From assembly GCA_008632985.1 (NCBI GenBank), contig QPGO01000369.1:1-37631 (forward strand): DNA of 37,631 nucleotides. The letters run 5' to 3'. The position numbers and the translations under genes are program-made. The DNA is from Psammoneis japonica (Eukaryota). Each line of letters begins with the position of its first letter. Within the stretch, counting starts at the first letter, position 1. The notes below the pieces were generated by a model. That model had not been told where the DNA came from. It saw nothing but the letters and a program-made list of their open reading frames with translations, and did not search any database. Shown here piece after piece: positions 14,931 through 36,915 of this stretch.

Positions 14931-17780
14931 CCAAGCCTGCAGCACATCCAATGAAAAGTCACAAAGAACAGGCATTGTGTCTGCCTTGTTGCAGCATCTG
15001 TGCAGACCTTGCAAGAATTTCCTCCTCCACTGTTTGTCATTGGGACATCGAAGAATGTGGCCCCTGTCTTCCATCAGATGATCGCACGCAATGCGCTGGT
15101 GAGGACGAACTGGATTGCATCTGTGAGCAATTTTGTTCATGTGGGTGGTGGCAAGTCATGCACCAGCTTTGCCGCATTGATGTGTTTCTTTGAATGGCAC
15201 TTCACCAGGATTGCACGGGCATTCCAATCGACTTGCTCCATCACTGAAGGGGTCCATTGGCTGCATTCAATGATGCAGTCGATCAATTGGGGGGCGGTGG
15301 CTGCATGTCTGATCTGTTTCTTGTGGCTCGATGTTGCAGTGCCTCCCTCTGTTTCGAGGTGAGAGTTGCAATGAGGCAGATGCTTGACTTGTCACACAGG
15401 CAGTGACCCTGACATGCTCCTGCCAATCTGTCAGCGCGGATGTTGACTCTGGCGTTTGTGGGCAAGGCATGGACTGGAGAATGCCTGCCTTGATGTCCTT
15501 TCACCCATGAGACTGGAGGGAGAACAAGATCCTCTGAATCCAAAAGCTGCTTCAGAGTTTGCTGGGTGTGAAGAATTTTGTTCAGAACGTCCCAATCTGG
15601 AGCAATGGCATTGGCGCCATTGCAGCGAACATGAAAATTGTGTGGAGCGTGAGCTTCTTCGTCTGGGTCAATCGCTGGTGGGGCAGATGTCAACCGGGAA
15701 AGACCGTCGACCAAAGCCTTGTTGTCACAATGAATTGCCGCGTCCAAAGGAACCGAAATCCAACAACATTCACACAATCAAAAAATGAACCGTGCAATTG
15801 AAAGGATGCCACAGGCCTCTGCGCGATGCGAAGATGGCATCTTTCCAAAAATGGGTCCTGCGCAATTCACTGATGGTGCGCCGTCTGAGGCAATCGTCCA
15901 TCCGAAGGTGGCTCCCTCCCCAGCTGACCCGTCACTGCCTGTGGTGAGAGTTGCAGGTGGGCAACTCCTCTTGAGTGCTTCAACAGTTGTTGAAGTTGGG
16001 CCACTCCTTGTTCAACATCAAGCGATCGAAAACCTCCGCCTCCCAATGACTGTGGTCTGTAGAGAATGAGCCTTTTGGTGTTTCTGTTGTGACCACATTT
16101 GGCAAAAATCGTCCGCATGGCCTTTTGTTGTGCCTGTTGGAGCTCTTTTGGAAGAAAATTTGAGCCAGCCAGAACACATGTCATCAAGGAGAGGTGACAA
16201 GCGTGGCAATGTTTCCATGTTTCTGTCCTGTCCAGTGGGCACAACCTGAGAAACAAGGAGACAGCATTGCTCTTGTGTTGGAGTTTCTTCAACTGAGTTT
16301 TCTGTGCACCGATTGGAGTCATGCAGTGTCCCAGGGTTTTGTGAGGTGTGTGTGCTGACAATTGCTGGCTGCACCTGGAAGTGGTTTGGTCAGTGGAAAA
16401 GATCTCCACCTCAATGTTGTCATGACAGGGTCACATGTGCGGTTCTCCACACTCTGTAAAGTCCCATTCTGTGGCATGGAAGGAACACTTCAGCAACTCA
16501 AGTTCATGTCCTGCTGTGTCCAACAAGTCACACCACAGCCGGTTGTCCGATTGGAGAGACTGGGACAACTTGAGCGCGGAGGGCTGAGGACTGGCTCTGA
16601 AATCGTTCACCTGCTTGGAAGTGTCATCAACATGACCCCTGTTGCATGCTTGGATGTAGAACTGTCCGTCCAGAGTTTTGAACAACAAACCAACAGCTTC
16701 AGCATCAAAGATGTCAAACAGTCCACTGCGCAGAGTGTTCCAGCACCAAGGAGAATTTCCGCTGCCTTGTCCTGTTCCGCACAACGGGAACTCAGAGGAA
16801 TGGGAACAACTTTTTTGGGCGATTCCTGACAGAGTGCACAGCCAATGACATGCATGATGTGACATCGCCACATTGACTTTGATCACTCTCTCGTGCATGC
16901 CATCACTCTTTGCACACAAACCCACTGTTGCTGGGATGTTCCTGTCACAGCAAGAAGTGCAGTCATCATCACTGGTGAGCAAAGTTTTCCGGGTAGCACG
17001 TGACATTTCCAGCATCAAGTTTTTGAGAAACACAGGCGTTTGGGCGGAAAGGAAGGAGCAACATCTGTAAATCCCTGGGTTGTGCATTCAGTGGTGATCC
17101 ACATGCTGGGCTAATTTGCGCCACTTGACGCTTGCAATCAGTTGGAAATCTGCCTCGTAGATGTGAATCACGCACAATCGGTGCATTTTGTTGTTGCCTG
17201 GTTCTTTGAAGATCGTTGCATTCACAGTGTCTTTCCATTGTTTGCGTGAGCAACCCCACCTTAAAGCGCAGTTGATCAGGTTAAGTTGCATTGCCACAAG
17301 GGATTGCTGGACCAAGTCCAACAATTCTTTCTGCTCGGATGGATTCCTGTCATTGTCACAATCATTTGCATGGGAATGTGGAGCGCACAGGGCCTTCCAG
17401 TGTCCCAGACAAATCCCTGACTTCAATGAAGCAGATGTTGACTCTGACCACAATTTTGTCTTCAAGTGGAGAGCCTCAGGAGTGAGAGAATTTGGAGCTG
17501 TTGGTGGTGTCCTTCTTCGAAGATGCTGTGTCAGCAGCAAAGTGGCGCGGTTCAGGTGTCCAGTTTCATGTTCTCTGTCTAGGATTAAATTGGCCATGAC
17601 AGTGTCTCCTTCACATCCAAGGTCAACAAACAAGGGTGGGACAGTGAGAGGAGTGCCACGTGCCTGTCCGAAGTGTCGTTGGTTTTTTTGCAGTGCTGGA
17701 GCGCAGATTCAATGTTGTCTGGGGCATCTGTCATCACCCAATTCTCGCACGTTTTGGGGTTGTCTCGGGGGTCTTCAGGT

Positions 17781-18172
17781 GACGGGTTCCAGTCCTGGGC
17801 GGGACTCCATGTGACATTGGGCCCGCAGAATTCTGTGTGCGAGCTCCGCAGTGCAAGAATTTAATCCACGGATGTGCTCACATCTTCAACATCAAACAAA
17901 CGGCCAAGTTTGTGGTGCAATTGTGCCTCTTGCCACTCGACATTTTTGCAAATGTGCCTGCCCTGCGCGATTCTTAAGACATTGTAGAATCGCGCTGCAA
18001 CAAAAAATGTCAAAAGTTGTTGGACGGATCGCTCAACAAGTGCACCACAAAATGACACAAAATTTCACAAAAGTCTCGTACAATTCTGCGTGCGCGACAT
18101 GCGGTGCGATCCAAAAAACTGTCGATGTCACAGTTCAGTGGTGCAAGGTCCCACCCAGAGCTGGGACGCGTC
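17781..18172 (+). mobile_element. MITE family A copy (~392 bp)
   Basis: GACGGGTTCCAGTCCTGGGCGGGA ... TCCCACCCAGAGCTGGGACGCGTC. Flanks AGGT/AGGG. Inserted in LINE ORF2. Confidence 0.8.
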
Positions 18173-21100
18173 AGGGATTTGAGTGGTTCGTGCGCTGGCT
18201 CCTTCCGTCTTTTTGCAAGCGTTGATTTTCTCAAATGCCCACTCGGTTTCTTCCGCACAGCGTTGATTGCGCAGGACTGTTTGGTGCAGTCTAATTCAAG
18301 TTTGGCAATGCGGGCATCTCATTCTTCATCTTGGTGTTTCTGACTCTCTCTTGCCACCTGACGGCACTCTGACTGAGCCTTTCGTAGAGCTGTGGCACAT
18401 TCTTGCAAGGCGATTGGAAGAACAAAGGACTCTTTGAGATCAAACTTAGCGCGTGGAGTCATTGGTGCCATGTCAACCTTGGCGCAAAACATGGACATCA
18501 TCCTGGACAACACCAAAATCTGTCTGCAGAGACTGGCCAATTTTGCTGACCATTCTGGTTTGTTGTGACGTCAACAATGCTTCGCGGAAGACAATGAGAA
18601 CTGCAGACTGTTGCGGTTGAGTCTCTCTGCGAGTCTGTGATTTGGCACCTCAGACTGTGCCAGTGCTTTGGTTTGCTCCTTGATGTTGCAACTTTGTAGG
18701 AGGGGAGCCATTGTCTCCAAATGTGCAGTTGCATGTTTCGGAGAATTTGCTTGCAAGCCTTGATGTTCGGCACGAGGCAAGTTGACGGCAGGGTTGCCAA
18801 ACAATGCCACAGTGTCAAAGCTGACAAAATGAGCTCAATGATCCAAGGATGTGTGACAACCAAATGATTTGCGCCCACACTTCTTGCTGCAGCCAAAGCT
18901 CCTGGAGTTGCTGGAATGCAGTCCAACTGACAAGATCCTCTCACATGCATGGAAAATTCAAGATCTTCCTGATGGCAACACATCACGTCCGACATGTTGA
19001 ACCGCTGCGCCATGGAAGCAAGGGCGTCATTGTCAGTGCAGAAATCTGTGCTAAAATCTCCAAACAGCACAACCTCTTGGTCTGGATCATCGAGAAACTG
19101 CTCCAGGATGCGGGTCAGATCCGTGCAAAATGATCATCTTGTGTCGGGATTTGTGCACCCTTGTTGTCAAAGCAATGCTTCCTGTTGTGCGCAAGCTCTT
19201 GTTTTGCCTGCAACAGAAGAGTCAAAGTGCACTCGATGACACGACACAAACACAACTTGCCGTCCATGGCGTCCATCAAAAATTTGGATCGACCATCTCC
19301 CGAGAAGATCTTCACATTGTGCACGGCATTGTGAAGACAAAGAATTGCATGAAAGCCAGGCGGTGCCACCAGGTTTGCAAGGGATGGAAAAGGCAGTCTT
19401 GGAGGATGACAATGTCAGACGGCCGCATTGGAAAGATTGGCAAACTGTGTTTGTGCAACTCTGTCGAACTTTGCATTGCATTGTGTCCAAACAAGTTTCG
19501 GAAATTCCAGCTGTGTCTGCCTGTGTTTCCGCAGTGACTTGAGAACAGGTGTTGAAGTCTCTGCCTTGCAGGTCACAAGCACATCCATTTGCATCAAACG
19601 CATGCAAACGTGTGTGGTCTGGTGATTTGGGTCCTAGCGGATCACCAATCGGGTCATTCTGTGCCAGAGCAGTGTGATCAACAGTGCTGGAGGGAGGTGC
19701 AAAACTTCTGCCTGACAACATCTGGGTCCACTGCTGGGCAGCGGGACCAACTGCCACCGAAGGGGCATCACCCCTGGGTGTGATGCCGCGCTTTCTCAAA
19801 GAAAGACTGAACAGCACGACAGGTGCATGCATCTTGGGAAATGGGCAGGTTGGATGACTGGTCCTGCCTCAGGAAAAACTGAGTCTTCTTGATCCACGTC
19901 GTCCGTGGCAGTGTCGTTGGGAGGATGGTGAGATGAAGAGCCTGCTGGGGCTGAGAGTGCAGGTTTCTTCCTCTGAGGAGATGAAACTCCCGGAGTCATC
20001 ATGGGTGAAATGGTTTCCTGAATCAAATCTTGAAACTTGGAAGCCAACTGCTCAAGAGATGCTTGATGTTGTCATCCCAGCAGCTCTGACCAGTGATCCT
20101 GCTCCTGATGATGTTGAAGCACCATCTGTTCAAGTTCAGCGATTTTGTTGGCACAAGATGTCAATTCCAAAGTGGGGGTTGCTGTGGGGACTGCCACACT
20201 GGTGGAACTTTCCAGGACTTGTGCAAACATCTGAAAGCTGCCAACAATCCCAACATTTCACGGAACCAGCGGAGGTGCTGGCTGTGTTGCGGGTTCAGCA
20301 GGAGCTTGTGAGTCAGAAGGAGAAATGTCAGAAATGTCTAGAGACTTCCAGCTTTGGATGCCAGCCAAGGCAATTGACTGAACAGTGTCCGAGACATCAT
20401 TGTTGACACCAGGATTTGTTGGGCAAGGTTGGTGAATGAACGGCAACTCGTTTTCTGGAAGATGGTTTGTCCAGCCTGAGAGGTTTTCTGCAATGTGCTC
20501 TTTGACTTTTTGAAAGCACTGTTTGTCCACGAGAATGTTGCAACGTGGGACTGAGATTTTCTTCTTTGAGGGGACAAAGTCCACTGCCCCTGGAATCGTG
20601 GAAATTGCACTGGACACACAAAAATGCATCCTGTCCTTGCAGCGAAGCAATGGGATCACGTGAATTTTTGCGGAGGTTTTTCGTTGCTTGCGCGCTGCTT
20701 TGTCGAATTGTTCTGGTTGAGTGTGCTGCCAGCAGGTGAAAATTGCCATTGATGGACGATCCTTCAATGCTTCCATCAGGGCTGCAATCATGTCCTTGGC
20801 GCAGTCTCGTGGGGTCTCAATGGCACAATGAGTCGATTTGATGTCCTTGTCAATTGGGGAAGATGCCGATTGAACAATCAACTGGAAAGGAACCTTGGAG
20901 CAACTGCAGGGGGGTGGAATTGACACAAGTCATTTCTGAACAATGTCTGCAGGGCAGTGCTCAGGCACAAAATCCAGGAAAAGAGCAGCACAAGACAAGT
21001 CGACGGTGGTCTTGTCACATTCATGACATCGCATGTAAAAGCCGTTGTCTTTGAGGACTTTGTGTGCAAAGGGTGTGTTCCTGATTTTGGCAAGAGCCAA

Positions 21101-21890
21101 GGCAGTGCAGATGCAGTGAGCGACGATGCACGCAGGAGGGCGGTGGCGGGTGCCTCCGACTTGGTGTAAAACAAAATGTTGCAAGTGCGTTGGTCCAGAA
21201 TTCCATTCAATGATGTCGACATTGGGGACATCAACACCACGATTCGACATGATGGAGATTTTGTGCGTCAACAGATCTTGGGACACCTTTTGCTGAAGGG
21301 CATGGAGGATGTTGGTGTGACCCTCAGCTGGGACTGTGGGGGCATTGTCCTCTGCCAATGTCAACTCAAATCGGATGGCAGTTTCTTTTGGGCCAATCAC
21401 GCTGAGCTTTTTTGAGCCAGCTCTTGTTGGGGTTGATGGAGTGTGATCCACAATGGGAGGAAGATCCGGAAGAGGAGCACTGGTGGGGCCAGCCTGCGGT
21501 GGAGGAGGGGTCGTCATGGTGACTGCTGCTTGGTGCAAAAAACCCGTGGAATTCCTCACAAAAACTGCCAATGTGTGCTTGCGCAGAAAAGCACTGATGA
21601 TTCTGTGAGACATGACAACAGCCATTGCAGCGGGCTTTGCTGACAGCAACCTGGTTGCCTTGGTCTTTTGCTCACAATTTTTGCCAACTCTAAAGTCTTT
21701 GTCTTGTTTGACCTTGCAGAATGATCGTTCACAGGAAATGTCCATTCATTGACGACCATGACTGCCAAGAAATGTCCATTCATCATTGACCTTGATCGTG
21801 TTCTGCACCAGTGCTGCTGACAGAATCCACGTCTCTCAGCACAACACCCGCGTCAAGCCCATAAAAACAACAGGACCCTGCTGGCACAAC

Positions 21891-22286
21891 GATGCGTTCC
21901 AGACCCAGGTGGGAATCCGTGTGACATTGGGCCCACAGAATTCCACGTGCGAGCTCCGCAGCAAAAGCACATGGCAATGAAAGTGTCAATGATCGCCAAC
22001 AGAAAATGAGGCAATTTTGCAAACGCACAAACTTGCCCATGATTGAAGCACATCGTTTTTTACTTGGCCAGTTGCATTCTTCAGACATTGAAGAATGCAA
22101 CTGGCGCGTCATTGTTTCTGTGAATTTGTTGTGTGAAATGTCTGGGGCTTTGCAAAACAGCAAGTCTGGACAATTTTTTTTAAACATCACACGCAGAAAT
22201 GCACGTGCAAAACATGCGATGGATGACAAAAATTGTTTGTGTCACACATCAGTGCTGCGAGCTCCCACCTGGGGCTGGAACGCGTC
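21891..22286 (+). mobile_element. MITE family A-related copy (396 bp) with perfect 4-bp TSD
   Basis: GATGCGTTCCAGACCCAGGTGGGA ... TCCCACCTGGGGCTGGAACGCGTC, flanked by CAAC/CAAC. Confidence 0.85.
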
Positions 22287-22348
22287 CAACATCATGAGCA
22301 CAATGATGGATGCCTGCACCGTCAGCGAATTTTTATTTCTTCGTGCAT

Positions 22349-22445
22349 TCATGTGAACCCAACGGACCAATGCACAAAAATGTTGTGAAGGTCAACATTT
22401 TTCATGTGAACCCAATGGACTGATGCACAAAAATGTTGTGAAGGT
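22349..22445 (+). repeat. Short direct duplication (~44 bp x2)
   Basis: tcatgtgaacccaaYggacYRatgcacaaaaatgttgtgaaggt occurs twice. Confidence 0.8.
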
Positions 22446-22635
22446 TGGCACTGCTTCAGCGACAAGACACATTCTGTGCTCGCCAAATCGCCAATGGTTT
22501 TGAGGCTGGGAACCCCCTTGTTTTTTGGTGAATTTTGGAAATTTCAAACAAAAAATGTCTGAAACAAGACAGTGTTTTTCACAAATGCGTGCAATTTGTG
22601 GAAAAATGTTCAAAAGGCTGGAGAGCGAATGCTGA

Positions 22636-22834
22636 GCTCACCGTGCAAACAACACGACAATGGCCGAAATGCCATCCATTGAACGCAATGCAGGCTTGGA
22701 GGCCTCCAACTTTCTTCATGAGTTTGTTGACCATGTCAAATGCGACACACTGTGAAAAAAGTTGGAGGCTGCCCCTGTCAGTTTTCGAGAACGGATGGCA
22801 TTTCGGCCATTGTCGTGTTGTTTGCACAGTGAGC
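22636..22834. mobile_element. ~200-bp MITE-like element with 45-bp inverted arms
   Basis: 22636-22680 and 22790-22834 are reverse complements with 2 transition mismatches. Confidence 0.7.
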
Positions 22835-22882
22835 ACAGAACACGTCAGTGTGTTTTTTCCACATTTGCATCACAAATGATTG

Positions 22883-23670
22883 AGGCGGGTCAGTCGCCAC
22901 TTTTTTTAGCTCGAGTTCGGTCGAACAGCTCGCATTTTGCATGGTTTTTCCTGAATTTCACCGTGCTTCACTGCAGTGAAAACAACAAGCCACAAGTCTG
23001 TGACGGAGGTGGCCCATCTGCCAACTCTCATTTGTTTTGTGTTTGTTGTGCATCAAAGATTGTGCATGCATGAAAAGTTGACAGACGGCATGCTGCATTT
23101 TTGAGAAATGTCGATGATTGTCATCATCGTCGTGCTTCGATTGCGGTGTTGATGGTTCTCGTTTTCGTGCACGACCGGGTGTGACCATGAACAATTGTTG
23201 CATTCAAAAACAAGCACTGCAAAAAATCTCACGCAAACACAACAATGGCAATTCTGGGACAAACGCGGGGGTGACCCGCCTCAACCCCCGCGTTTGTCCC
23301 AGAAATTGTCATGGCATTTGAATGAGGACATTTGCAGTGTTTGTTTTTGAATCCAAAAATTGCCCACATTCACCCCCGATCGTGCACGAAAATGAGAACA
23401 TCAGGCGCCGTGATCGAAGCACGACGATGACGGCAATGTTGACACAAGTCCAAAACACAGTGGTCCGTGTGCAAACATTTGATGTGTGTGTGACCTCAGA
23501 CACACAACAAGCACAAAACAAATGAAAGTTGATGCACGGCCCACCTCCGTCACAGACTTGTGGCTTGATGTTTTCACCACAGTGAAGCACGGTGAAATTC
23601 AAGAAAAATCATGCAAATCACGAGCTGTTCGGCCAAATTGGAGCCAAAAAAAGTGGGGGATGACCCGCCT
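22883..23670. mobile_element. Inverted dimer of a ~400-bp non-autonomous element forming a ~790-bp quasi-palindrome
   Basis: The arms 22883-23272 and 23284-23670 are reverse-complement homologues. Termini AGGCGGGTCA/TGACCCGCCT. Perfect 21-bp central stem 23252-23272/23284-23304. Confidence 0.8.
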
Positions 23671-23792
23671 TAGAACACCAGTTGTTTTTCATGCGTTTTG
23701 CAAACACATGTCAAAAACACAAGGGATTTCCCACCCTCAATCGTTAAATGTCAATCAAGAGTTGGTCGCAGAAAGATGCCAACTTGTCATTT

Positions 23793-24087
23793 GCAATCAA
23801 AAGCAATCAAAAGCAACAATGAGTGATGAAAAGTGATCACAAGCAATCAAAAGTCATCACAAGCAATCACAAGCAATCATGAGCAATCACAAATGATCAC
23901 AAGCAACCGCAAGCAATGAAGACAAATGTCCACAGACAAGCTGACACAACAGCCCTTTAAATCTGACCGTTGACATGACATTTTTGCACAAGAGACACAC
24001 ACTCGACTTTTTAAAGTAATCACAAGCAATCAAAAGGAATCAAAAGCAACCACAAGTGATCACAAGTGATCATCAGTCATCACAAGC
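23793..24087 (+). repeat. 10-bp tandem satellite, inferred ancestral unit AAGTAATCAT (mutated copies, two blocks)
   Basis: Units aagcaatcac, aagtgatcac, gagcaatcac and aagtcatcac at ~23793-23920 and ~24013-24087. The array continues at 26810-26860 beyond the Sola element. Confidence 0.8.
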
Positions 24088-26809
24088 AAGACTGGCCACA
24101 CAGAAAGGTGCTGACAGAGCTCGAAATGGCTCGCATGGTCGATTTTGAGGTGTGGATGCCAATCGAAAGCTCTTGATCTCAGCTCTTCAGCGATGTGTGT
24201 GTCAATGGCTGGCAATGCTTCCTTGACATTTTGTCAGCCACAAACCAAATTAACGGCTTGAATTGTTTGCTGTGAGTGTTTTGACCGTTGAGGAATTGCG
24301 CGAAATGACATGCCAAGAAAGTCACGCACACAAGTTGTGCAAAAGCACATGATTTTTAAGATTGTGCAAGTCTGCACAAATTGTCAAGCACTTGACATGA
24401 GGCTCAAATTTGAAATTCTCTTGGTGGAGGCAACAAGAGCAAAAGCAAAAGCGTCACAAAAAAAATGGCGCGGCCGAAACTGACCAAAGGCGTCAAGGAC
24501 GATGAGGCAGCAGAAAAGTTCTGCGATTGGCTTTCTGACCCCAACGAGTCTCCCATTTTCCATGAACATTGTGCCCAGGTGACTGCAAAGAAACCTGCGA
24601 AATGTCAGTGTCTGCAGAAGCCAAGAGTGATGTTGGAGAACAATGACACCTCCGTCGTGAAAATGTTGAGCAACTGCCTCGTGTGCTTTGAAAGACTGGG
24701 GTGCACAGAAACACATGCTGCTTTTACATCCTGGATCAAATGTTCTGCTTTCATTCAGAAGCATGCATGCAAGGGTGATTGTCGCTGCTTTGTTTTGCCG
24801 CTGTTGAAAACTGACGACAATGACGAGGAGGAGGCGGAGGAGGGGATGCCGCCGGACGATCATCTGGTCTGCCATGGTGCCCTCCTTGCATTGCTGGGCA
24901 AAGGGAGAAAGTTCTGGAGAACCGCCAAGTTGAGTGCAAAGAGCAACATCTTTCCGAAACATGGTCTCAAAGGGAAGACTGGGCAGAACGCGAACAAGAC
25001 GCTTGTGCCCGAAATGTTTGCAGCCCTTCACGCACATTTTGATGACATGAAGGAACTTTCTGAGCCACGTGCAACGAGACTGGTTAGAGAAGAGACAGGT
25101 GTCGGCTTGAGAGATGAAGACACACACGACTTGCCTCCCACCGTGAAAAAGCGTGGATTGTGCAAACGGCGCAGACAAGAAAATGGTTGGACCCTCAAAT
25201 CGAACCACAAAGGCAAGTTTCTTAAGGCGGAACCAATCGAAGGAGAAGACCAGCAACCAATGTGCTCCTGGGCACAATTTTGCAAGTTCTGGAAAAAGAG
25301 CTGTCCTGAAATTGTCGTGAGAAGGCCCACTCGTGACATCTGCGATGAATGCTGCAAGTTCGCAAATGGCTTCAGGATGAAAGCGATGAAAGAAAAGACG
25401 GGGGGTGAGAGCAACGACGACGAGGATGAGGAGGAGGAGAGCGATGATGATGAAGAAGATGGAGCAGATGCAGAGGTGAGAATGAAAGAGATTGAAGAAC
25501 AGGAAAATGAAATGTTGCATGCCACAAAGCACGTCGAGTGGGCTCGAAAGCAACGGACACTCGTGCAACAGCACATTTCGGAAGCGACAGAACACGCAAA
25601 AGCCGACAAGGCACATGGCGAGCGAACTTGCGCAAGGATTGGTGGCTGTTGTCAAAATGGCGGGCTTCCACATTTTGGGGCGGATCAGCCAGGGGAGACG
25701 CACTGCTTCTCTCCTTTGACAATCAATGTGTTTGGGGTTGCCGATCCTGCGGGGAAAAAAGTTGTGACGGTGACGGAAGATGAGTTCAAGGATTTTTTGC
25801 ATGCACGCGTCTGCCATGAGGGTGCTGGCCAAAAGGGAGGTGACAATGTTGCTTCCCTTGTGATGAAGCACTTGCATGATGGTGGATTGTTGGACATCAG
25901 TGAGGGTCCAGGCGGAAAGCTCACATTGATTTTTGACAACTGCATCGGGCAAAACAAAAACAACACGGCATTGAGACTTGCTTCTTGCCTGGTGGAACAA
26001 GGATGTTTCAAAGAAGTGAGCATCATTTTTTTGATGAAAGGGCACACCAAGAATGCCTGTGACAGGCTCTTCAACAGCCTCAAGCAAACTTGCCGTGACA
26101 AGAACATCGGCACGTTCTGCAAACTCTTGACAGCCTTGGACACCTCCGAATGCGTTCAGGTCGTTGAAGCGAAGGAGGAGGATTTTGTGGGGTGTGGAGC
26201 GCATTTTGACCAACATTGCAAGAAGTGCAGCGCAGCTGTGAAGCACCACTGCTTTGAAGTGACAGACTCTTCGGAACCCACGGCAGCAACAATGAAAGCA
26301 GCGGACGGTGAGCCAGAAGTTGCCGAGGATCTCAAGAAGAGGAAGACAGAATCGAGCGAGCAACGAAAACAGAACTTGCAAACGTCACAACCACTTGCCT
26401 TGACAGCTCCAGGCATCAAGGACATCAAGAAGGTCGAGCTTTGTGCCAAGCATCAGCCGCTTCTTGACAAGGCAGACCAAGACGAGATGTGCCCTCATCC
26501 TGGAGACGACGTCCTCAATCGCGTTGCGAAAAGCAAGAGAGAGAAGCGGAAGAACAAGCAGGCGGAGAGCGCTGAGCAGATGGCGCGAAATGAGAAAAAG
26601 AAAACCGCCAAAGCCAGTGCAGTTCTTTCGGAGAGGGACACAAATAAAAATTAATGGCAGTCCTTGTGTACACACAAATTTTATGTGATGTTTTATGTTG
26701 ACACTTTAATTGTTTGACATCGCTCAAAAATCTTGTAAGTGCCATTTTCTCGAAACAAATTTTGAGAGCTCGAGAGCGCGCGTTAGCACCTTTTTATGTG
26801 GCCAGTCTT
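24088..26809 (+). mobile_element. Sola1-like DNA transposon, 2722 bp, 28-bp TIRs, 4-bp TSD
   Basis: Left TIR AAGACTGGCCACACAGAAAGGTGCTGAC (24088-24115). Right TIR reverse complement AAGACTGGCCACATAAAAAGGTGCTAAC (26782-26809). TSD AAGC (24084-24087) / AAGT (26810-26813). Single transposase ORF. Confidence 0.85.
24465..26654 (+). pseudogene. DDD-type transposase (Sola1-like), open 729-aa frame, hypermutated
   Basis: PTRDICDEC; IGGCCQN...LPHFGADQPGETHCFSPL (expected D-Y-x-QN...ETYYFSPL); FDNCIGQNKNN; FLMKGHTKNACDRLF. No Tyr in 729 aa, and the first catalytic Asp appears to be Gly. Superfamily assigned from motif recall. Confidence 0.8.
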
Positions 26810-26860
26810 AAGTAATCATAAGTTATCATAGAGTCATCACAAGTCATCATAAGTCATCAC
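26810..26860 (+). repeat. 10-bp satellite, TpA-retaining copies
   Basis: aagtaatcat aagttatcat agagtcatcac aagtcatcat aagtcatcac. Confidence 0.8.
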
Positions 26861-27280
26861 CAGCCCCAACGACTTAAAACATAAAAGGTGTTCTTTGCCA
26901 AACAAGACTAAATTCAACGGATAACCGTTACGAACTACAAATCACGCAGGCCAAAATTTCCGTTGTAGTTGTATGAATACGCATGACTTATAAAAATTCG
27001 CGGACGGTGCGGTGCAGCATAAATCTAATGCTGTAAACGGAATGACCGTTCATATGAAATATTCATTCATTTATGACCATGACCAAGTTCTATGTTCCAT
27101 GTTGCACGTACAGTACAATCTACGTCTCTCAGAACATACAAAATGCCAGCCATCAATGACCTCATTTTTTACATCCGATTTCTCCTGGTAGAAACGGCGT
27201 GAAGCCCATAAAAACAACATCACCTTTCTCCTCTCATCGTGTCTTCTTGATCCAACTTTTGATCTTATTCAAGCAAAACG

Positions 27281-30116
27281 ATGCTCCCCCGTGTCTTTGC
27301 CTTTGCCTTGTTGCTAGGGTCGGCAGCGGCAAACAATAAGGACGCCGTTCCGCTCTTCAGCTCCCGAATGCCGGCACCCTCGAAGGCCTCTCCGTATCAC
27401 GTCCCAGGACACGTCGACCAGATTCGCTTGAATCGAGGAAGTCTCAACGCCGCTACTATCCTCGTTGATCTCTTTGAAGATGGCAGTGCCCCCTTGACTC
27501 TTCGCCAGGACCGCACCGTAATTGGCAAGCGCGGCGAACACACCTGGATGGGTCAGGTCGTCGGCTTTCCTAATAGTGTGGCCTCCTTTAGCTTCCACAA
27601 AGGAGCAATTTCCGGTTCCATCGTTTACGGCGTCTCTGAGATATTCGAGATTTCGTCGGAACAGGGTGGAACGGCAATCTTTGCGCAGATTGACGAAGAC
27701 AAGCTTCCTCCAACGAAGGAACTGTTCCCGCCCGCTTCTCGCAGGCTCCTCCGTGGAGCAACCGACGGAGACACCATCAGCGAGCAGACCAGTCTTGACA
27801 CTTCGGATTCACACCGGAGGGAGCAAGTCACCTCTGGAAACACAGTACAAGACATTATGGTGGTATACACGCCAGCCAGCCGAACCAGGTATGGTGGCAT
27901 CGCGGGAATTGAAGCTAAGATCGTGGAAGCCATCCAACTTGCAAACCAAGGCTATATCAACAGTCAAATCAACCTCGAGCTGAATCTTGTGTACATGTAT
28001 GAGGTAGGCTATACAGAAACAGGTGACATGGGTCTCACTCTCAGTCGCTTGAGAACTCCCGGCGATGGCTTTATGGATGAAGTGCACTCCGTTAGGGATC
28101 AATATGGTGCAGATCTTGTCGCCATGATATCGGAAGACAATAACTATTGTGGAATTGCTTATGTCATGACGAGTGATAGCTCAGACTTTGCTCCTTATGC
28201 CTTCAGCGTGACATTTTCAAGTTGCATTTCCGGATTGACCTTCACCCACGAAATCGGCCACAATCAAGGTACGTTCATTATTTTTCCATTGTCTCATTCT
28301 CTCCCATTTTCTCATCCCGTTTTCATTGCTTCATTTATAAATAAGGTTCTACCCATAACATCGAAAACGGGGGAAGTGCCGCATATCCTTATTCCTACGG
28401 TTACCGTGTATGTAACGATGGCAGTCTCCCTCCCCCCTACTTTCGCACTATCATGGCCTACGGCTGCACCGGGGCAACTCGCCAGAATTTGTTTTCCAGT
28501 CCTAACCTTACCTACGAAGGCGCGGTAGCTGGTACCGAAACTGCCAACAATGCTGAAAGCATCCGCAACACCATGGCCATCACGNCGCGTTTCGAGCTTC
28601 GGTGACTGTTCCCGCCCCGAATGCACCTTCGAACTTGGAGGCCACCACCGTCGGCGCAAACGAAATTTTAATTTCCTGGCAAGATAACTCCTCCAATGAA
28701 GAGACCTTCAGGCTGGAGCGATACATTGGTCAGGGTCCATGGGAGGAAATTGAGTCTCTTGCAAGTGATGTCACCTCTTTCAGCGACATTACAGCGCCAT
28801 GGACGACCAACTCTTACCGTGTTCGTGCCGTCAATGGCGGTGGTTCCTCTGAATATTCAAACGTTGGCCAAGCAACACTTACAGCGCCGACAATGGGCTC
28901 TGTGACGGCAGCGGCCCTTTCTGGAAGTGAAATTCGGCTAAATTGGGGGGAAATTGATGGAGCGGACTCCTATGTTGTTGAGAGGTTGAGTGGAGGAAGC
29001 TGGCAGGTCTCTGAAACGACGTTCACGGACACTGATCTCCAGTTGGCAACGGAGTACTCCTACAACGTTACAGCTCAAAAAGGACTAAGCTCTACAAGCC
29101 CATCGCCCACCGTGTCTGCCACAACGAGTGATAATGTTGAAGTGTTCCCTTCGACCGAGACCAACAGTTTTGGAACGGTGACTGGTTCTCTCGCGCGCCT
29201 TGATGCCGCAGATGGCAATGCTGAATCCATCCGTGAAGAAGAATCTAGTGGCAATCCTAGTCGCCGTATTTCCCGATTGTCTCATGAATGGTATTTCACC
29301 CTTCCAAACGGATGGGATCATGCCACCGTAACTGCCACAGCGTGGCACCAAGGCGAAGAAGCTTTCAATTTTGACGTCTCCCTGGATGGAGGAAACAGCT
29401 TTTCAAGATTGTTTGTCGTAAACACAATTCCGCAAGCACCTACACGAAACTTATTTCGGGGTCTGGTGTCAGCGATGTAAGAGTGCGAGTACTTGATGCT
29501 AATCGTGTCCAGGGAGAGCGGACTCTTGACACTGTCTACGTTGACCAGCTTTTCATCAAGGCTTTCGTGAGTACTGGCGGTGGCAGTCCACCATCAGCTC
29601 CGTCCAACTTGGTGGCAGTGGCACCAGAGAGCACCGAAGTGCAGCTCACCTGGAACGACAACTCTATAGATGAGTTGGGTTTTGAAGTTGAACGTAGCGA
29701 GGATGGTGGAACGACCTGGGTCCCCAGCGCCACGACCGTGACCGCTTCTTCGGTGGACTTTGACGTTTTGCCTTCCGCTACGTATGACTATCGCGTGAGA
29801 GCCTACAATACAGCTGGAAATTCTGCATGGTCCAACGTTGCCCCAGGTAGTTGTCCCCGCCCCACCTACAGGAGGCCCAATTACCCTGAATATCACGACC
29901 CGCAAGGAAAAAGGATTCAACGTCTGTGACTTAACTTTCTCTGGTGCTACCACAAGCAATGTTGAAATCTATCGAAATAGTGCATTGGTCACAACCACCC
30001 AAAATGATGGATTTTACATGGACAACACTGGCCAAAAAGGAGGCGCGAGCTACGTTTACACAGTGTGTGATGCGGGTGGTTCGACCTGTTCACCTGACGT
30101 GACCGTGGTCTTTTGA
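27281..30116 (+). CDS. Secreted metzincin zinc metalloprotease (reprolysin-like M12B / peptidyl-Asp M72-like) with fibronectin type III repeats and bacterial-type C-terminal domains
   Basis: Signal peptide MLPRVFAFALLLGSAAA. Splicing of intron 28269-28345 gives HEIGHNQGSTH (HExxHxxGxxH), then YSYGY and Met-turn FRTIMAYGC. FN3 repeats (APSNL...WQDNSSNE...YRVRAVN). Apparent frameshifts at ~28585 (next to an N), ~29425 and ~29843 (C-run) are probably assembly errors. Normal Tyr and TpA content. Confidence 0.85.
28269..28345 (+). other. Spliceosomal intron (77 nt) splitting the zinc-binding motif
   Basis: GTACGT donor, pyrimidine-rich body, AAG acceptor. Phase 1 (G|GT = Gly) and it completes HExxHxxGxxH. 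Confidence 0.9.
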
Positions 30117-30528
30117 AGAAACTACATCCCACGCGTTCCATTTAAAGTTCTATAGGCATAGAAAACTGGCAGTTCATTGCCTCTCCTGGAGCCTACTAAT
30201 GACGAAAAAGTACCTTGTCAATGTGTCCGCCTCTTCTCTCACGTCGTTTGGCATAGGGTTGGTGCTAAGTAGGACCTGTGTGCTCTCTAGCCAGCTAAAA
30301 GAGAGCAGTCTGTCCGTCCGCATTCTTGATTGATCGGCCATGGACAAGTGATGGCCTGCTCGTCGGCTCGAGCTCGGCTTCTCACTAAATCGTTGGCTTT
30401 CCCGTTGAGCATGTTGAAGGTGTTTACGTAAAATTGTTCATAGCCCCTGGTGTGTTGGGAGCACTGTGACTGAATGTGCTGTGTGGCACATGGAAGGAGG
30501 AGTCCCCACTCACAAAACAGAGCAACAA

Positions 30529-30933
30529 GACGGTTCCAGTCCTGCCGGCAGCTGGGTGGGGCTGTTTGCAACATTGGGCCCTCGGAGTTCTGCACGCAAG
30601 CTCCACAGCAAGATTGCAAAGCAATGAATGCATAAATGATTGCCAACAAAAACAGAGCAATTTTGCAAGCGCATCTCCTCCTCCACACTTGAGGTGCATC
30701 ATCTGTGGTTTGCCCAGGCATGTTCTTCAGACATGAAGGAATGCACCCAGCATGTTTTCATTCCCACAAATGTGGAACATGGAGGGCCTTTGGCTTTGCA
30801 AAACAGGGAGCATGAAACAATTTTGCATGAGATCACAGGCAGAAATGTGAGTGTGTGACATGGGGCACAATCCAAAAAACTCTTGGTGTTGCAGCTCAGC
30901 AGTGCAAGGTCCCACCTGGAACTTGAGCACACC
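30529..30933 (+). mobile_element. MITE family A-related copy
   Basis: GACGGTTCCAGTCC start and GCAAGGTCCCACCTGGAACTTGA end. Interior homologous to 35224-36132. Confidence 0.65.
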
Positions 30934-31252
30934 ACAAAATTGGCAAGCCTGACAAAGAAGGCAAGGTGCCAGGGAAGGTTTGGCACCCAGGCCCATTCCA
31001 CTCATGATGATGATGGGCAAAGGTGCTTGTTTGTCAGCTGTCAGCATCAACTCTCCATGGTTTCTGATGGGGATGATGTGTTGAGATGCCCAGATGACAG
31101 CAAACAGAAGATTGGGCAAGTGGGGCTCTGTTGCACATCATTGTGGACAAGAAATTGGATTTTTGAGCCAGGGCTCAAGCCCAGAGCTTGAAGCATGTGA
31201 GCCAACAAACACTCTGTTTTTAAGAAAAGATGGTGCATTCAGGCCAGGACGT

Positions 31253-31756
31253 GATGTGCTTCAGCCGCACATGACTCACAGCGTGCACAAAAACAACAAC
31301 ATTTGCATCTGTCTCTGACTTGCAAACAACCTTTCACCACCAAAAGTGCAGACTCATCCAAATTTTGATGTTTGGCAACACTGGCAAGACTCGTGTTGGT
31401 GTTTCAGTGTCGCTGTCATTGTGGAGCAATTGTTTGTCAGAGCGTGCATTCCAGTGATCAAGGGTGCCTTTCTCACAGTTTTTTTTTTCACTGTGACAGG
31501 ACACCAGATGTTGCACGTGGTGATTTTTTGCAAACTCCAGATCTCTGCAAAACTCGTCAATCACAATTGTTTGTGTGCTTGTGTCTCATTTTGGTGTCCA
31601 ATTTTTACAGGGGTGCAAAGCTGTGTGCTGCAAATCAATTGAATCAGCGGTTGCTGTTTCAATGTTTGCACTGCTGTGACCCAGAAATGACTGCCACCAT
31701 GGATGCTGTCTCCTTGCCAGACTGGCTGTCTCACTCTGTTTTCAGTTGAACAAATC
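31253..31756 (+). mobile_element. Decayed MITE related to 33893-34422
   Basis: Shared start GATGTGYTYCAGCYGCACRTGAC and interior caccaccaaaag...gcaacactggcaagact. Right end uncertain. Confidence 0.5.
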
Positions 31757-32261
31757 TCAATGCAACAAAAGAGCAAAAGCAATGCCTCACACCCAAAGCA
31801 AGTGGCGACAGCGTCAGTGCAAACCTTAGCTGATTGGATTGTTTGCACATGAGCGCACCTCTGAATTGTGACTTTGCAACTGTCCCATCCAGGGACAGAC
31901 CACTCCATCCAAATTCATTTGGCTCCCGCAAATCGGCAATGACAACACTGATTTGTCTGCATGCAACATCCTCTCACAGAGAGGCAAACCACAGAAACCC
32001 AAATTAAACCACCAGCAATGCTGGCTTGGGAGGTCAAAGCATGTGGGCGCAAGCCACAGGTGTCTGACCTTGGTGTTGGGACATTTGCCCAAAGACACAA
32101 GAGCAAAGTTTCCAACGCCACTCTCCTGTGACCTTCTTTGCAGCAGATCTGCCAGGTTTGTTTCTGCGCCCTCTTTCCAAACATGAATGATGCCCTCTGC
32201 AACCGCTTCTCACACCACATGACAGATGATGACATTGTGCTTCTTGTGCAAGACCGATTTG

Positions 32262-32351
32262 GGGACACTTCCATTCCACATGCACGACACCATGATTGTC
32301 GCAAAAGGGACACTTCCATTCCACATGCACGACACCATGATTGTCGCAAAA
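32262..32351 (+). repeat. Perfect 45-bp tandem duplication inside the old copia RNase H
   Basis: gggacacttccattccacatgcacgacaccatgattgtcgcaaaa x2, followed by gacactt microhomology. Confidence 0.9.
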
Positions 32352-33892
32352 GACACTTGCTGGACCCTCAAGAGGTGCTCCAAACGTGCAAATCTTGTGA
32401 TGCAAAGCAACAAACAACTCCTTGCAAATCCGCGCTGCAGCCAACTTGCTGCCAAAAGTTGCCAACTCTGCTGTGTTCTGCCATTTTCTGTGCCATGTGA
32501 TTGGTGCATTGTTGACAAATGTCAGGATTCTGCCATGAGACCTGCAAGTGACAACATTGCCTGCATGGCTGGAATCAACAAAGGCGCAGATGTTGACCAG
32601 GTTGCCATGGAGCTTGGGTGCCCACAGCGGCAACTCTTTCTCAATGTCCCACAAAACTTGGTCCAATCTGCACTCAAGTTGAATGTGGGCTCATCAGCTG
32701 CCAGCTCCTTTGGATCAAACCCCATCCTTCCAAAGTTCTGGTGTTTCTTCACATGCGCAAACACACAATGCAAAGCCTTGAGGTGTCCCTTCCTTGGGCC
32801 AGCTTGACACTGGGAAAGGATTGAGACCTCATGCAGAACATCAGCAGGGCCCAACTTGATTGCATGATGACAAATTCTTGTCAGCTGCAGATGCCTGTCA
32901 ACTGGATCATGGCCCAATTTGTCAATTGCACCCAGCTCTGGCTTGCACTTTGGGGGCAGAGGATCCTTTGCGGCGCTCTTCAGTGCTTCTCCATTGCCAT
33001 CCTCATCCGAGAGACCTTCCACCACTGCTTGAACACATGCCCTTGGCGAGCTTGCCCAGATTGCATGTCCATCCTCAGTCTGAACCTTCTCAACATTGGC
33101 CCCAAGGTGGATCTCTGGTTCTCCATCACTGCCAGGCTTCACAGCACAGTGTTCACCTGTGGCAGCAACAATGGACTTCCCTTGAGATTGGAGTCTCATT
33201 GACACAAACCAAAAGCATTTCGCAATGCTCGTGCCCACCCTCCCAAGTTGCCACTTGCAGGCAGACATTGGGGTCCACTCTCATTTGTTCAAACCCTGAT
33301 TCGTGCAAGACCAGTGCCAGCCTGGATCTCCAAGAGCATTTCTGAGCTCTTCAGACCATGCAATGCACAAACAACAATGAGCGCCTTTCCTTCATGCTTG
33401 ACACATTCCTTGCTGCCTTCAAACCATGGCTTTTCTGCACATGGTGCATTCAAGTGCACGTTCTCTGGGTCAATTGCTGTGATGTCAACTCCATTCAAAG
33501 CTGCTGACAGGAATCCAAGTTGCACGCTGTCTCTGGAAACAATGCTTGAATGCATTGTGGATGATGGAGCCTCTGTTGTGTGACCTCCTGCCACAAATCT
33601 TGCCTTTCTCGTGAAGTCTGTCTTTGCACTGAAAACCATTTGACACACAATCTCCTGACAGCCAAGCAAAGTTGTGCTCTTGCCTTCCCAGATGCCTTGT
33701 GGGGTTTGAGCTTCATGCTCGTGCCACACCACTGCTTGACCTTGGTCATCTCCTTGTCAATCGCACAAGCCCAATGATCTGTCCCCATTTCCTGACCAAT
33801 CTTCAAAGCATCTTCCGCAGACTTGGGCAAAAGAATCCCAAACTTGTGGGTGGCAAGCCAGTGCTTCATCTCAATCTTCAAAATGAAGTGAT

Positions 33893-34422
33893 GATGTGTT
33901 CCAGCTGCACGTGACCCAAATCGTGCACAAAAATGACATTTGCGCAATTTTTGCGCAGTCTCTCACTTGCAAACAAGATTTCACCACCAAAAGCATGGAC
34001 TTGTCCAAAATTGAATGTTTTGCAACACTGGCAAGACTTGCATCAGTGTTGCCATGTCATTGGTTTTGTGACATCTGTGTTTTTCATTGTGACAAATGAC
34101 TCACAACACAATGGATGATTTTTGGCAAAATTGTTGCCATCACTTGAATGTCAAATCAAACAATTTTTCTGCAAGACCTTCTGACAGGTGTTCCACCTGT
34201 GACCAAAAAACTGCATCCAATGAGCTGTCGCACAATCAGCACTGAGTCTGCAGAGGGAGTTTGTGGTGCATGTCCCATGAGGAATTGAATGCCAAGGCTT
34301 GAAGACCCACAAAATCCCATCCACCCAAGTGTTTTGCATTCACATGCTTCATGCACAAGAGACACATGATTTGTGGTAAAAATTCATTGTCTTTTGTGTG
34401 TTGCCTGAGACTGGAACACATC
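33893..34422. mobile_element. 530-bp MITE with 12-bp TIR GATGTGTTCCAG and 4-bp TSD
   Basis: GATGTGTTCCAG...CTGGAACACATC, flanks TGAT/TGAC. Interrupts copia pol. Confidence 0.75.
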
Positions 34423-35223
34423 TGACTCTGCTTGCACGGGACACGCACAACCCACAAGCAAGTGCAGGTTGCTCAGCCAACCTGTTTGTTGCAACAGGAT
34501 GCTCAGCAACTTCAACAGGGTTGGACTCTTTCAGATCCTTCAATTTCACCCATGACAAGCTTCCATCCTTGGCTCCAGCTGACCAACAGCTTCCAACCTT
34601 TTGCAGTGGTCCTTTTTGACTCCTGTTTGTCAGCAATTTGTGCTGTTCCATCATTGGTTGGCATTGCGTTGCCTGTCTTCTCATGATCCTGCATCTCTTT
34701 CAGTGCAAAACATTGGTTGTCTTCACTGTTGACTTGAACAAACCTGTTCTCAGCAGCTGCACTGGCTGTGTGCTTGTCTGTTGCACCATTGGCACATTTG
34801 ACTTCATGCTCTCAAGTGTCAAATGTTGGGCTCTGATGTCTGGTCCCAGCCAGATGCCCATCTTGTCCTTTTGCCTGTTTTGTGAGGACACCTCATTGCT
34901 CACCATTGGCTCCAATGTCAAACACAAGTTCCATGCCCAGATGCTGGTTGATTGCCTGCTCATTGTCATTGTCTGGCCGCTTGTCTGGCAATGGCATGTC
35001 TCCACATTCCTTGTCCGTTGGCATGACACCATCCTCACATTGGACACTGGGATTGTCATCTGTGGCAAGATCATCCAATGCAAATGCTGGCACAGCTTTG
35101 TCACCCTCTGAAACAAAGCCAGTGTTGCCCAGGTGTGTCTCAAGTTGCCCATTGAACTTGTGAACCTCAACATGGATGTCAGGCTGCACCACATTGGCCT
35201 GCGTCACATGCTCCACCAATGTT

Positions 35224-36132
35224 GACGTGTTCCAGCCCCAGGTGAGACTTTTTGTGACATGGTGCCCGCCAAATTCTGTGTGCAAGCTCCACAGCAAAAT
35301 TGCCAAGCAACAAAAGTGTGAATGATTGCCAACAGCAAAAGAGGCAATTTTGCAAATGCATCTCCTCCTCCACACTTGAAGTGCAGTCTGCTCGCGTCAA
35401 CACATGCTGGGGGTGCATGCCGAATTTCAGCACATGTCACAGAGAGGATGTGTGTCATTGCTTTCTGGTGCAAAAGCGTGCATCTTTGCCACACACACAG
35501 AACAAGTGCCAGCACATGCGCAGATTGAAATCTTGCGCTTCTCCCTCACGACTCATTTGTGCTACGTTCGTGCAGCCACCACTGCAATTTTTGAAAAAAA
35601 CCATGACATGCCTTCATCTGTTCTTTGGTCCTGCCAGGCGCAAAGAAGCCCAGGACCACTTCTCAGAGGCAAACAATGGTCAATGAGGGCATTTTCAGTT
35701 GTTTCAAGCGCAGTCTTAATGACTTCATTGCCTCAAACTGGTTGCATCACGGATTCACGACATGGCCTGTCGGTCTGTCAGTCTGTCTGTTAACAGGGAA
35801 TTCTGACCCTTGTCCGAGGGGTCAGGCCAGACATTTGGCACATGTTGTAGAGTGGGCACATGTTAAAAAGCATGTGTTGATGCAAGCAGACTGTGCATTG
35901 TTGACAGCATGGCCGGGTGTGTTCTTCAGACAATGAAGAATGTGCCCAGCGCATTTTTGTTGTCACAAATGCAGAAAACAGAAAGCCTTCGGCTTTGCAA
36001 AACAGGCAGTGTGGAACAACTTTTTTGCAACAGAACATGGAGAAATGCATGTGCAAAACATGTGACGGATGACAAAAAACAATCATGTCACTGTCCAGCA
36101 GTGCAAGGTCCAACCTGGAGCTTGAACGTGTC
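35224..36132 (+). mobile_element. MITE family A-related copy carrying a nested insertion
   Basis: GACGTGTTCCAGCCCCAGGTGAGA ... TCCAACCTGGAGCTTGAACGTGTC, flanks TGTT/TGTC. Collinear with 30529-30933 once 35384-35893 is removed. Confidence 0.75.
35384..35893. mobile_element. 510-bp Tc1/mariner-type MITE (25-bp TIR starting CAGT, 2-bp TSD)
   Basis: CAGTCTGCTCGCGTCAACACATGCT / AGCATGTGTTGATGCAAGCAGACTG, flanked by TG on both sides. The empty site is visible in the 30529-30933 copy. Confidence 0.8.
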
Positions 36133-36725: not shown

Positions 36726-36915
36726 TCCCTTCTTTCAAGTGCTTCCAATGTGGGTCCAAATGGTCCACCCTTGCTCTTCTTGACACATGTCCCTTCTTTC
36801 AAGCACTTCCAATGTGGGTCCCAATGGCCCGCCCTTGCTCTTCTTGACACATGTCCCTTCTTTCAAGCACTTCCAATGTGGGTCCAAATGGTCCACCCTT
36901 GCTCTTCTTGACACA
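36726..36915 (+). repeat. 64-bp tandem triplication inside the old copia
   Basis: Units start at 36726, 36790 and 36854 (tcccttctttcaagYRcttccaatgtgggtcc...cttgacaca). Confidence 0.9.

Follow-up and report, generated by a model that had tools for sequence, protein, structure and literature searches.

Probable stop-neutral hypermutation at TpA leaves long, nearly tyrosine-free reading frames in three transposable elements of Psammoneis japonica

Why should transposable elements that have been extensively rewritten by mutation still carry reading frames of many hundred codons, and why should these frames encode almost no tyrosine? We consider this question for contig QPGO01000369.1 of Psammoneis japonica (GenBank assembly GCA_008632985.1), positions 1 to 37,631 of the forward strand; this whole stretch of 37,631 nucleotides is called the window below. 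It contains a long interspersed nuclear element (LINE), a Ty1/copia-type element with long terminal repeats (LTRs) and a putative DDE-type DNA transposon whose protein belongs to the DUF7869 family. A preliminary description of the window had proposed that a mutator acting on TpA erases stop codons, so that elements are inactivated by missense changes and look intact when dead. The reading that we favor, with a probability of roughly 0.8, is that stop-neutral TpA hypermutation of three young elements leaves sense frames open while tyrosines vanish. The elements would have inserted recently and then would have been hypermutated, tract by tract, by A:T>G:C transitions confined to TpA (TpA>TpG or CpA); hundreds of such changes would keep the sense frames open and remove about nine-tenths of the conserved tyrosines.

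The dinucleotide TpA occurs in the window 293 times, while ∼2,290 occurrences are expected from base content (observed to expected ratio, O/E, 0.128). TpG and CpA have O/E values of 1.551 and 1.549, and CpG has 0.65; thus, TpA depletion is accompanied by TpG/CpA excess. Two mutated tracts flank an unmutated island. In tract A (1..26644) TpA is almost gone and TpG/CpA are in excess; up to 26 kb, single kilobases have TA O/E values of 0.00-0.18, and there is no TA between 25223 and 26645. Tract B (30442..37631) consists of old repeats and is CpG-poor as well: from 31 kb on, the TA O/E is 0.00-0.15 and the CG O/E is 0.10-0.37, with values of 0.33 and 0.45, respectively, in the border kilobase 30001-31000. 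The island between them (26645..30441), with two host genes, retains 157 TA in 3797 nt (O/E ∼0.6). Mobile DNA was rewritten and host genes were spared, and the borders, at 26644/26645 and near 30441, are sharp.

The four long frames listed in the preliminary description, of 1414, 1623 and 729 amino acids (aa) along with a 665-aa antisense frame, are all present. The open reading frame (ORF) of the LINE, with its 5′-end cut by the window edge, occupies 3..4295 on the + strand: 1430 codons with no internal stop, ended by TGA, of which 51..4295 makes 1414 aa. It has 77 homologues at E<=1e-5, the best three at E=0; several of these carry PF03372, PF00078 or PF13966 (endonuclease, reverse transcriptase [RT] and zf-RVT) in precomputed domain lists, and for two the named source is the diatom Fragilaria crotonensis. 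The LINE ORF of the window itself gave no Pfam match at E<=0.01. The copia polyprotein (8054..13717, − strand) extends from a Met codon at 13717 to a surviving TAG at 8056-8054; its 1887 codons, with one internal stop, fall within the range of 24 aligned homologues (1777-1933 aa), and its open part, 8876..13747(−), accounts for the 1623 aa. Features of Ty1/copia are present, namely RVT_2 (PF07727, E=4.3e-23) and the pair of LTRs, and there are 1072 homologues at E<=1e-10. The transposase (24465..26654, + strand; 729 aa, TAA at 26652-26654) matches PF25273 at E=3.3e-20 (72.9 bits, with a cut-off of 26) and has 42 homologues, some from Pseudo-nitzschia multiseries; the exact 729-aa sequence is absent from a collection of 15 billion proteins. 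The antisense ORF (24384..26381, − strand) has 665 codons, is codon-aligned with the transposase and starts with TTG. Tyrosine is nearly absent from the long frames: 0/729 residues in the transposase, 0/665 in the antisense frame, 4/1414 in the LINE and 7/1623 in copia.

One could suppose that such frames are a chance outcome of TA-poor composition, as DNA with fewer stop triplets has longer random ORFs. Stops do become sparser: the host island has 39.5 per 1000 triplets and mutated DNA has 25 (25.1 in tract A and 26.1 in tract B, a ∼1.6-fold decrease). We made 100 dinucleotide-preserving shuffles of 1-26644, in which the TA poverty is kept, and recorded stop-to-stop frames. The longest shuffled frame averaged 280 codons (range 203-423), against 94-246 codons in the shuffled host island; yet the observed frames of 1654, 1430, 743 and 666 codons are longer than any found in each of the 100 shuffles. 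There were 27 observed frames of at least 200 codons versus 4.5 in shuffles (maximum 9), and three of the four long frames have homologues with E-values from 2e-143 to 0. Composition lengthens random frames but leaves the four long frames unexplained; as their only cause it is ruled out by the shuffles, and we give it hardly any credence, since it suits only frames of 110-300 codons. None of 62 further open frames of at least 110 codons in mutated DNA matches Pfam, as would be expected of chance frames; still, the genuine LINE ORF gets no match either, so that a blank does not prove noise.

Tyrosine was also tallied over all longer frames, which within the window serve as a proxy for a plot of predicted proteins. 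There are 97 stop-to-stop frames of at least 110 codons lying wholly in mutated DNA; 72 of them are Tyr-free and 85 end in TGA. The host island has eight such frames, with median Tyr of 2.29%. Downstream of the LINE, in 4207-7304, several Tyr-free open frames of 239-383 codons were seen on both strands, with no Pfam match.

The direction of the changes is given by repeats within the window. The copia LTRs, at 7831..8107 (3′ LTR) and 14655..14931 (5′ LTR), both on the − strand, form a 277-nt direct repeat with 90% identity. Their 22 differences comprise 10 of CG versus TG or CA, seven of TG versus CA, one of TA versus TG and four others. The LTRs of an element are identical at insertion; therefore, at the sites with TG versus CA and TA versus TG, the ancestral dinucleotide was TA. 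The putative ends of the DUF7869 transposon give a similar picture. The left end (23770..24115) includes 10-bp subterminal repeats (23770-24087; units AAGCAATCA or AAGTGATCA) and an inverted-repeat arm (24088-24115), both mutated; the right end (26782..26874) includes the other arm (26782-26809) and 10-bp repeats (26810-26874; units AAGTAATCAT and AAGTTATCA, with TA), both unmutated, and it keeps TA where the matching places of the left end read CA or TG. The arms are 89% complementary over 28 nt and two of the three mismatches are at TA. Finally, in 17 of the 40 difference rows listed, out of 2079, the window shows TG or CA and other copies show TA; these 17 include three in the transposase ORF (24482, 24573 and 25049). 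The rows come from contigs of the DNA run containing the stretch, aligned at 80% likeness; this run may be the source sample, and it shows differences from copy to copy rather than independent proof of the assembly. No RNA run is listed as containing the stretch.

That the change of TA to TG or CA is a base-calling or assembly artefact at modified adenines deserves next to no weight. No sequencing platform is recorded for the source data, and the sole runs that contain the stretch may themselves be the source sample, both of which leave some room for an artefact. However, the copia LTRs went opposite ways (TG versus CA) at seven sites, other copies read TA at the same places, the borders are sharp with one transposon end unaffected, and a recent preprint reports that de novo mutations with the same signature were measured in a different alga, Bigelowiella natans (Mettrop et al., bioRxiv 10.64898/2026.01.13.699255).

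The effect on proteins was determined in alignments with 22 of 42 transposase matches, 24 of the 120 listed copia matches and 24 of 77 LINE matches, shorter or lower-coverage rows being dropped. Among 120 columns with a Tyr majority in the homologues, pooled over three elements, the window has Cys in 56, His in 32 (88 for Cys and His together) and Tyr in just nine. Separately, the LINE (n=41) has C 16, H 9, F 9, Y 2 and other 5; copia (n=64) has C 28, H 22, Y 7, F 5 and other 2; the transposase (n=15) has C 12, H 1, F 1, G 1 and Y 0. Other conserved residues were kept at 79-91% (LINE 283/357, copia 649/712 and transposase 151/177), and the homologues carry 2.3-5.4% Tyr. The change of Tyr to Cys or His at conserved positions, expected from the preliminary description, is thus present in all three elements. 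Its second proposed route, Ile to Met or Thr, exists but is a minor one: in conserved Ile columns we saw one Met in copia, and two Met and one Thr in the LINE.

What a mutator restricted to TpA may do to a coding sequence was worked out by enumeration, with each codon and one flanking base per side subjected to all possible TpA>TpG or TpA>CpA changes. No sense codon turned into a stop (0 outcomes). Among stop codons, TAG becomes TGG or CAG, TAA becomes CAA or TGA, the latter still a stop, and TGA is never touched. Both tyrosine codons, TAT and TAC, yield Cys or His codons. The other outcomes are ATA to ATG or ACA, TTA to TTG or TCA, CTA to CTG or CCA, and GTA to GTG or GCA; an A-initial codon after T changes its first base, ATG giving GTG, hence start codons can be lost. 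Repeat-induced point mutation (RIP), known in Neurospora and other ascomycetes, converts CpA to TpA and creates TAA and TAG from CAA, CAG and TGG. The idea that the mutator, unlike RIP, removes stops containing TA and cannot create new ones is upheld by the enumeration; the notion of overall stop erasure went too far, as TGA is immune and TAA changed to TGA stays a stop. The ratios of triplet frequencies in mutated and host DNA are 0.02 for TAT, 0.08 for TAC, 0.12 for TAG and 0.17 for TAA, the stop triplets being the least depleted, and the share of TGA among stops is 50% in the host island, 87% in tract A and 87-93% over the mutated tracts.

With the TA density of the host island (3.8 kb) as a proxy, we estimate ∼86, 152 and 207 TpA changes in the three ORFs, i.e. 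∼445 in 12.1 kb of coding DNA, with no TpA-derived stop. Equal numbers of random substitutions would be expected to make 3.7, 6.1 and 6.0 stops (∼16), and RIP-type changes 8, 22 and 21 (∼51). One stop was observed in ∼4050 codons, at an invariant Arg column, and it derives from CpG decay.

As a control we used 80 metagenomic loci encoding unmutated relatives of the transposase (median TA O/E 0.59, median Tyr 4.0%). In the 54 loci with an ORF of at least 400 codons the native stops are TAA in 23, TAG in 17 and TGA in 13. Saturation of TpA changes was simulated in the 35 loci with an ORF of at least 600 codons, with 20 runs each at two strand biases. A premature stop appeared in 0/700 runs at each strand bias, while, with equal numbers of RIP-type changes, the median transposase ORF acquired 10 stops. 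Between 28% (strand-biased) and 51% (unbiased) of the simulated runs lost the native stop, with a median read-through of 27-33 codons. Among the relatives, the locus L076 has both the lowest TA O/E (0.31) and the lowest Tyr content (1.8%), and L063 and L067 have TA O/E of 0.39 and 0.40; these three may be partly mutated copies in other organisms.

The frames might also be open just because the elements are very young or still selected for transposition, with the mutator irrelevant to openness. Since 18 of the 22 LTR differences are at sites derived from TA or CG, background divergence is small, and the good retention of conserved residues other than Tyr points the same way. Yet the ∼445 inferred substitutions did accumulate, and a random spectrum of them would have left the ∼16 stops mentioned above; moreover, retention of conserved Tyr at 9/120 columns is incompatible with ongoing selection on the proteins. 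We consider it unlikely that youth or selection accounts for the frames without the mutator. Youth is required too, and for the most part this reading and ours complement each other.

Not all changes in this DNA are restricted to TpA: a second process, CpG>TpG/CpA, acts on it as well and does create stops. Besides the 10/22 LTR differences that are CpG transitions, conserved Arg residues have been turned into Cys, His, Trp or a stop: 8/9 changes in conserved Arg columns of copia are of this kind, and 6/12 in the LINE are to Cys or His. The sole premature stop in the copia frame, TGA at 8876..8878 (− strand), stands in a column with Arg in 24/24 aligned homologues and, judging by that alignment, arose by CGA>TGA, a CpG transition. 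CpG decay adds to the excess of Cys and His and begins closing the frames. By making TGA from CGA, and with off-frames rich in TGA, it would lead to older repeats that are closed in all frames.

Stop counts per frame agree with such a course. It had been stated that overlapping ORFs crowd all six frames; this is ruled out by the counts, since openness is confined to part of the frames. In the region of the transposase, the sense frame and its codon-aligned antisense counterpart are open (one stop each), and the other four frames have 10-40 stops; over copia, three frames have 44-94 stops. The older repeats at 15-23 kb and 30.5-37.6 kb have 48-81 stops in each frame and no open run above 272 codons; within 30500-37600 the counts are 48-70 per frame and the longest open run is 253 codons. 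Thus, it is true of young copies that dead elements look intact, while older repeats are closed in every frame.

The two strands of the transposon were affected unequally. The 12 changes of Tyr to Cys against one of Tyr to His mean A>G on the + strand (in copia the numbers are 28 and 22). Where a TAA lies on the strand undergoing A>G, it persists as another stop, TGA; therefore, stops are not simply erased. The numbers of TGA kept are 30 and 37 in the + off-frames, and 1, 9 and 18 in the minus frames; for a bias of this kind the relatives predict similar counts (27 and 51 versus 9, 13 and 16). Summed over the three frames per strand, 24465-26644 has 67 TGA versus 28 TCA triplets on the + strand.

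Were native stops read through, as the preliminary description had suggested for the LINE beyond ∼4150 and for copia into its LTR? The LINE tail after the last conserved Phe has 51 aa, against a homologue median of 11 (3/24 homologues have a tail as long). At ∼4150 there is no CAA, CAG or TGG codon, and the former stop cannot be placed there; the first such codon, at 4176, is also the first in-frame CAA after the conserved C-terminal motif (4176..4178, + strand), and a TAA at this place would leave a tail of 12 aa. The copia frame enters the 3′ LTR by 17 codons (∼50 nt), up to the surviving TAG. Its tail after the last conserved Trp has 36 aa against a median of 15 (1/23 homologues as long); an in-frame CAA 13 nt short of the LTR (8120..8122, − strand) is a candidate former TAA and would leave a 14-aa tail. 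Read-through is likely in both elements, given the long tails, and the two CAA codons, at 4176 and 8122-8120, each the first in frame and each at the place where the median homologue stops, may reflect TAA>CAA erasure or may be a coincidence. For the transposase read-through was ruled out: its native TAA is located 8 nt past the tract border, the C-terminus aligns with the relatives, and the length of 729 aa suits the 22 aligned homologues (615-846 aa, mostly 707-802).

The antisense frame of the transposase requires separate consideration. Its stops correspond to TTA, CTA and TCA codons of the sense frame, and the window has 0 TTA, 0 CTA and one TCA (at 26385); the most common Leu codon is TTG (22). 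Per 730 codons, the relatives have 6.4 antisense TAA, 5.8 TAG and 9.2 TGA, versus 0, 0 and 1 in the window. In 54 loci of relatives the longest antisense open stretch typically reaches 123 codons (median) and never exceeds 280. The mutator accounts for the lost TTA and CTA but not for the near-absence of TCA. Antisense TAA and TAG opposite sense TTA and CTA would have been erased; because the local changes were strongly biased towards A>G on the + strand, they would have become CAA and CAG, not TGA, and a sense frame left by happenstance with a lone TCA would complete the long antisense frame. The chance of so few TCA is ∼0.05, given a TCA share of ∼8-15% (about 10%) of Ser codons in the window and 32 Ser codons, ∼28 of them in the first 640 codons; the near-absence of TCA would be a chance event of this size and is otherwise unexplained.

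It could be argued that the 665-codon frame is a real gene of this transposon lineage: it is longer than any counterpart in the 54 relatives and in the 700 simulations per strand bias (maximum 431 codons), and the sense frame opposite to it is nearly devoid of TCA. However, it starts with TTG, the frame has 17 stops in the closest relative (L001), and it has no Pfam match. An exhaustive search of 1.84 billion representatives returned a single match, P0240 (E=5e-10), which in tblastn maps to the minus strand of transposase loci in 20 relatives listed; therefore P0240 is itself an antisense mis-prediction in a public set. With no Pfam match and this sole database match, we rejected the antisense frame as a gene, a reading that we hold to be very improbable, and judge it a by-product with a small part unexplained.

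DUF7869 was not found named in the literature searched. A profile search of PDB sequences gave two weak, irrelevant matches, and Foldseek with the model of a relative, P0001, against PDB gave nothing at E<=0.001. P0001 is 39% identical to the window transposase (BLASTP), and its structure model has a predicted local distance difference test score (pLDDT) of 80.4. Residues 392-599 of the model align to the catalytic cores of retroviral integrase, Mos1, Metnase and IstA with Z of 8-10.5 (among the best, Z 10.5 with a root mean square deviation of 2.5 Å over 128 residues); as the core aligns to DDE catalytic domains, the DUF7869 protein is a DDE-type transposase with an RNase H-like core. The tyrosines lost include four invariant or near-invariant ones (window positions 395, 413, 414 and 450), and the matching residues of P0001 fall within its 392-599 core. 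One of them is the Tyr of the DYCQN motif, adjacent to its conserved Asp; in the model of P0001 this site is where the first core strand ends. With tyrosines lost in the catalytic core of the transposase, the copies of the elements are most probably dead; this loss of activity we infer from the sequence.

Several observations weigh against the reading given at the outset, or limit it. The ancestral states were reconstructed from homologues with 29-57% identity together with 40 of the 2079 difference rows, rather than from sister copies, and the change counts lean on the TA density of just 3.8 kb of host DNA. Erasure of the native stops of the LINE and copia is compatible with the tail lengths, and loss of function is deduced from residues. 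The YVDD tyrosine of copia RT was kept, yet the adjoining homologue consensus VYEY reads HHEH in the window. An antisense frame of at least 640 codons appeared in 0/700 simulations at either strand bias (maximum 431), and such a frame also needs the near-absence of TCA, one versus ∼9 expected from relatives. Finally, Tyr-free predicted proteins were not seen among the 239 listed homologues (42 + 120 + 77) in public protein sets; none was even Tyr-poor, the lowest having 2.3%. We keep stop-neutral hypermutation at TpA as the explanation at the probability already given.

How does this process relate to known ones? RIP is the closest classical system: there too, transitions hypermutate repeated or mobile DNA in a fixed dinucleotide context and leave a strong dinucleotide signature. 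It fails on chemistry and on nonsense production, as here TpA is destroyed (O/E 0.13, direction TA>TG/CA) with no nonsense arising from it, while RIP raises TpA; and a tract border cuts through a transposon, which would not be expected of a purely homology-guided process. APOBEC3 enzymes cause G>A hypermutation of retroviruses and LTR retrotransposons; APOBEC3G acts on minus-strand cDNA during reverse transcription and typically makes TGG>TAG stops. Context-specific, deaminase-type editing that inactivates the coding capacity of mobile DNA is common to both cases, but in the window a DNA transposon and non-coding repeats are affected as well, on both strands, and no nonsense is possible. The enzyme responsible would probably be a deaminase that attacks adenine in DNA.

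A matching mutational signature is described in the text of a single preprint, where TpA-restricted hypermutation of integrated giant-virus and virophage DNA is reported for B. natans (Mettrop et al., bioRxiv 10.64898/2026.01.13.699255). In mutation-accumulation lines the de novo rate was raised, and 230/231 de novo changes were A>G or T>C, all of these on TpA (10.64898/2026.01.13.699255). Both cases have A>G/T>C at TpA, TpA depletion with CpA/TpG excess, foreign or mobile DNA struck and host genes spared; we regard ours as a further instance of this recently reported kind of hypermutation. Here, in contrast to what the preprint describes, the host is a diatom-like stramenopile, transposons are hit in multi-kilobase tracts and CpG decay is also present. 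The preprint also reports 324 TpA-poor predicted coding sequences in B. natans, enriched in DDE endonuclease and reverse-transcriptase domains (10.64898/2026.01.13.699255); by analogy, these would fit the prediction that such frames get annotated as genes. Its text, supplementary tables being outside this scope, has none of the words ‘stop’, ‘nonsense’, ‘missense’ or ‘tyrosine’, and it does not include the coding consequences set out here; in the literature searched on TpA hypermutation, diatoms and transposable elements we found no description of the stop-codon consequence.

The surroundings of the elements provide further observations. The island contains a Reprolysin-like host gene (27281-28528, + strand; Tyr 3.1%) and an fn3 host gene (28602-29480, + strand; Tyr 2.4%), both with Pfam matches. 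The border 26644/26645 falls within the DUF7869 transposon, and the ATG of the adjacent host gene follows ∼640 bp downstream of it; as it lies inside the transposon, whose right end kept TA, targeting seems to follow a chromatin-like domain rather than the limits of the transposon itself. The 134 TA surviving in mutated tracts have a 5′ A in 8/134 and a 3′ T in 4/134, against 37/157 and 44/157 in the host island, and among the tetramers that survive TTAA (29) is the most common; the mutator seems to prefer ATA and TAT as contexts. Contigs of the DNA run heap up on 7800-15000 (copia), 17415-18055 and 21902-22542, with a summed depth of ∼58,000-174,000 versus ∼45 for single-copy contigs, and contig joints connect 17851 with ∼21974. 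This suggests that 17415-18055 and 21902-22542 are LTRs of another high-copy element.

One could speculate that a strand-biased mutator turns silenced transposons into stop-free sense and antisense frames, some of them expressed, so that Tyr-free, Cys/His-rich ‘genes’ in diatoms and chlorarachniophytes would form a reservoir for domestication or de novo gene birth; we regard this as a long shot. What is new in the present case is the accounting of stop codons, the unequal retention of stops on the two strands, the part played by CpG decay and the limits of ‘looking intact’. Where this mutator operates, the activity of a transposon cannot be read from an uninterrupted ORF; counts of ‘intact elements’ and gene predictions would take in dead, Tyr-free copies, and TpA O/E, the Tyr fraction and TGA as the sole stop could serve as flags for them. 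As a practical corollary, open frames without tyrosine are relics and not genes. The process makes a natural contrast to RIP and APOBEC: silencing would proceed solely via missense changes, chiefly the loss of tyrosine, and the frames would eventually be closed by CpG decay, not by the TpA process.

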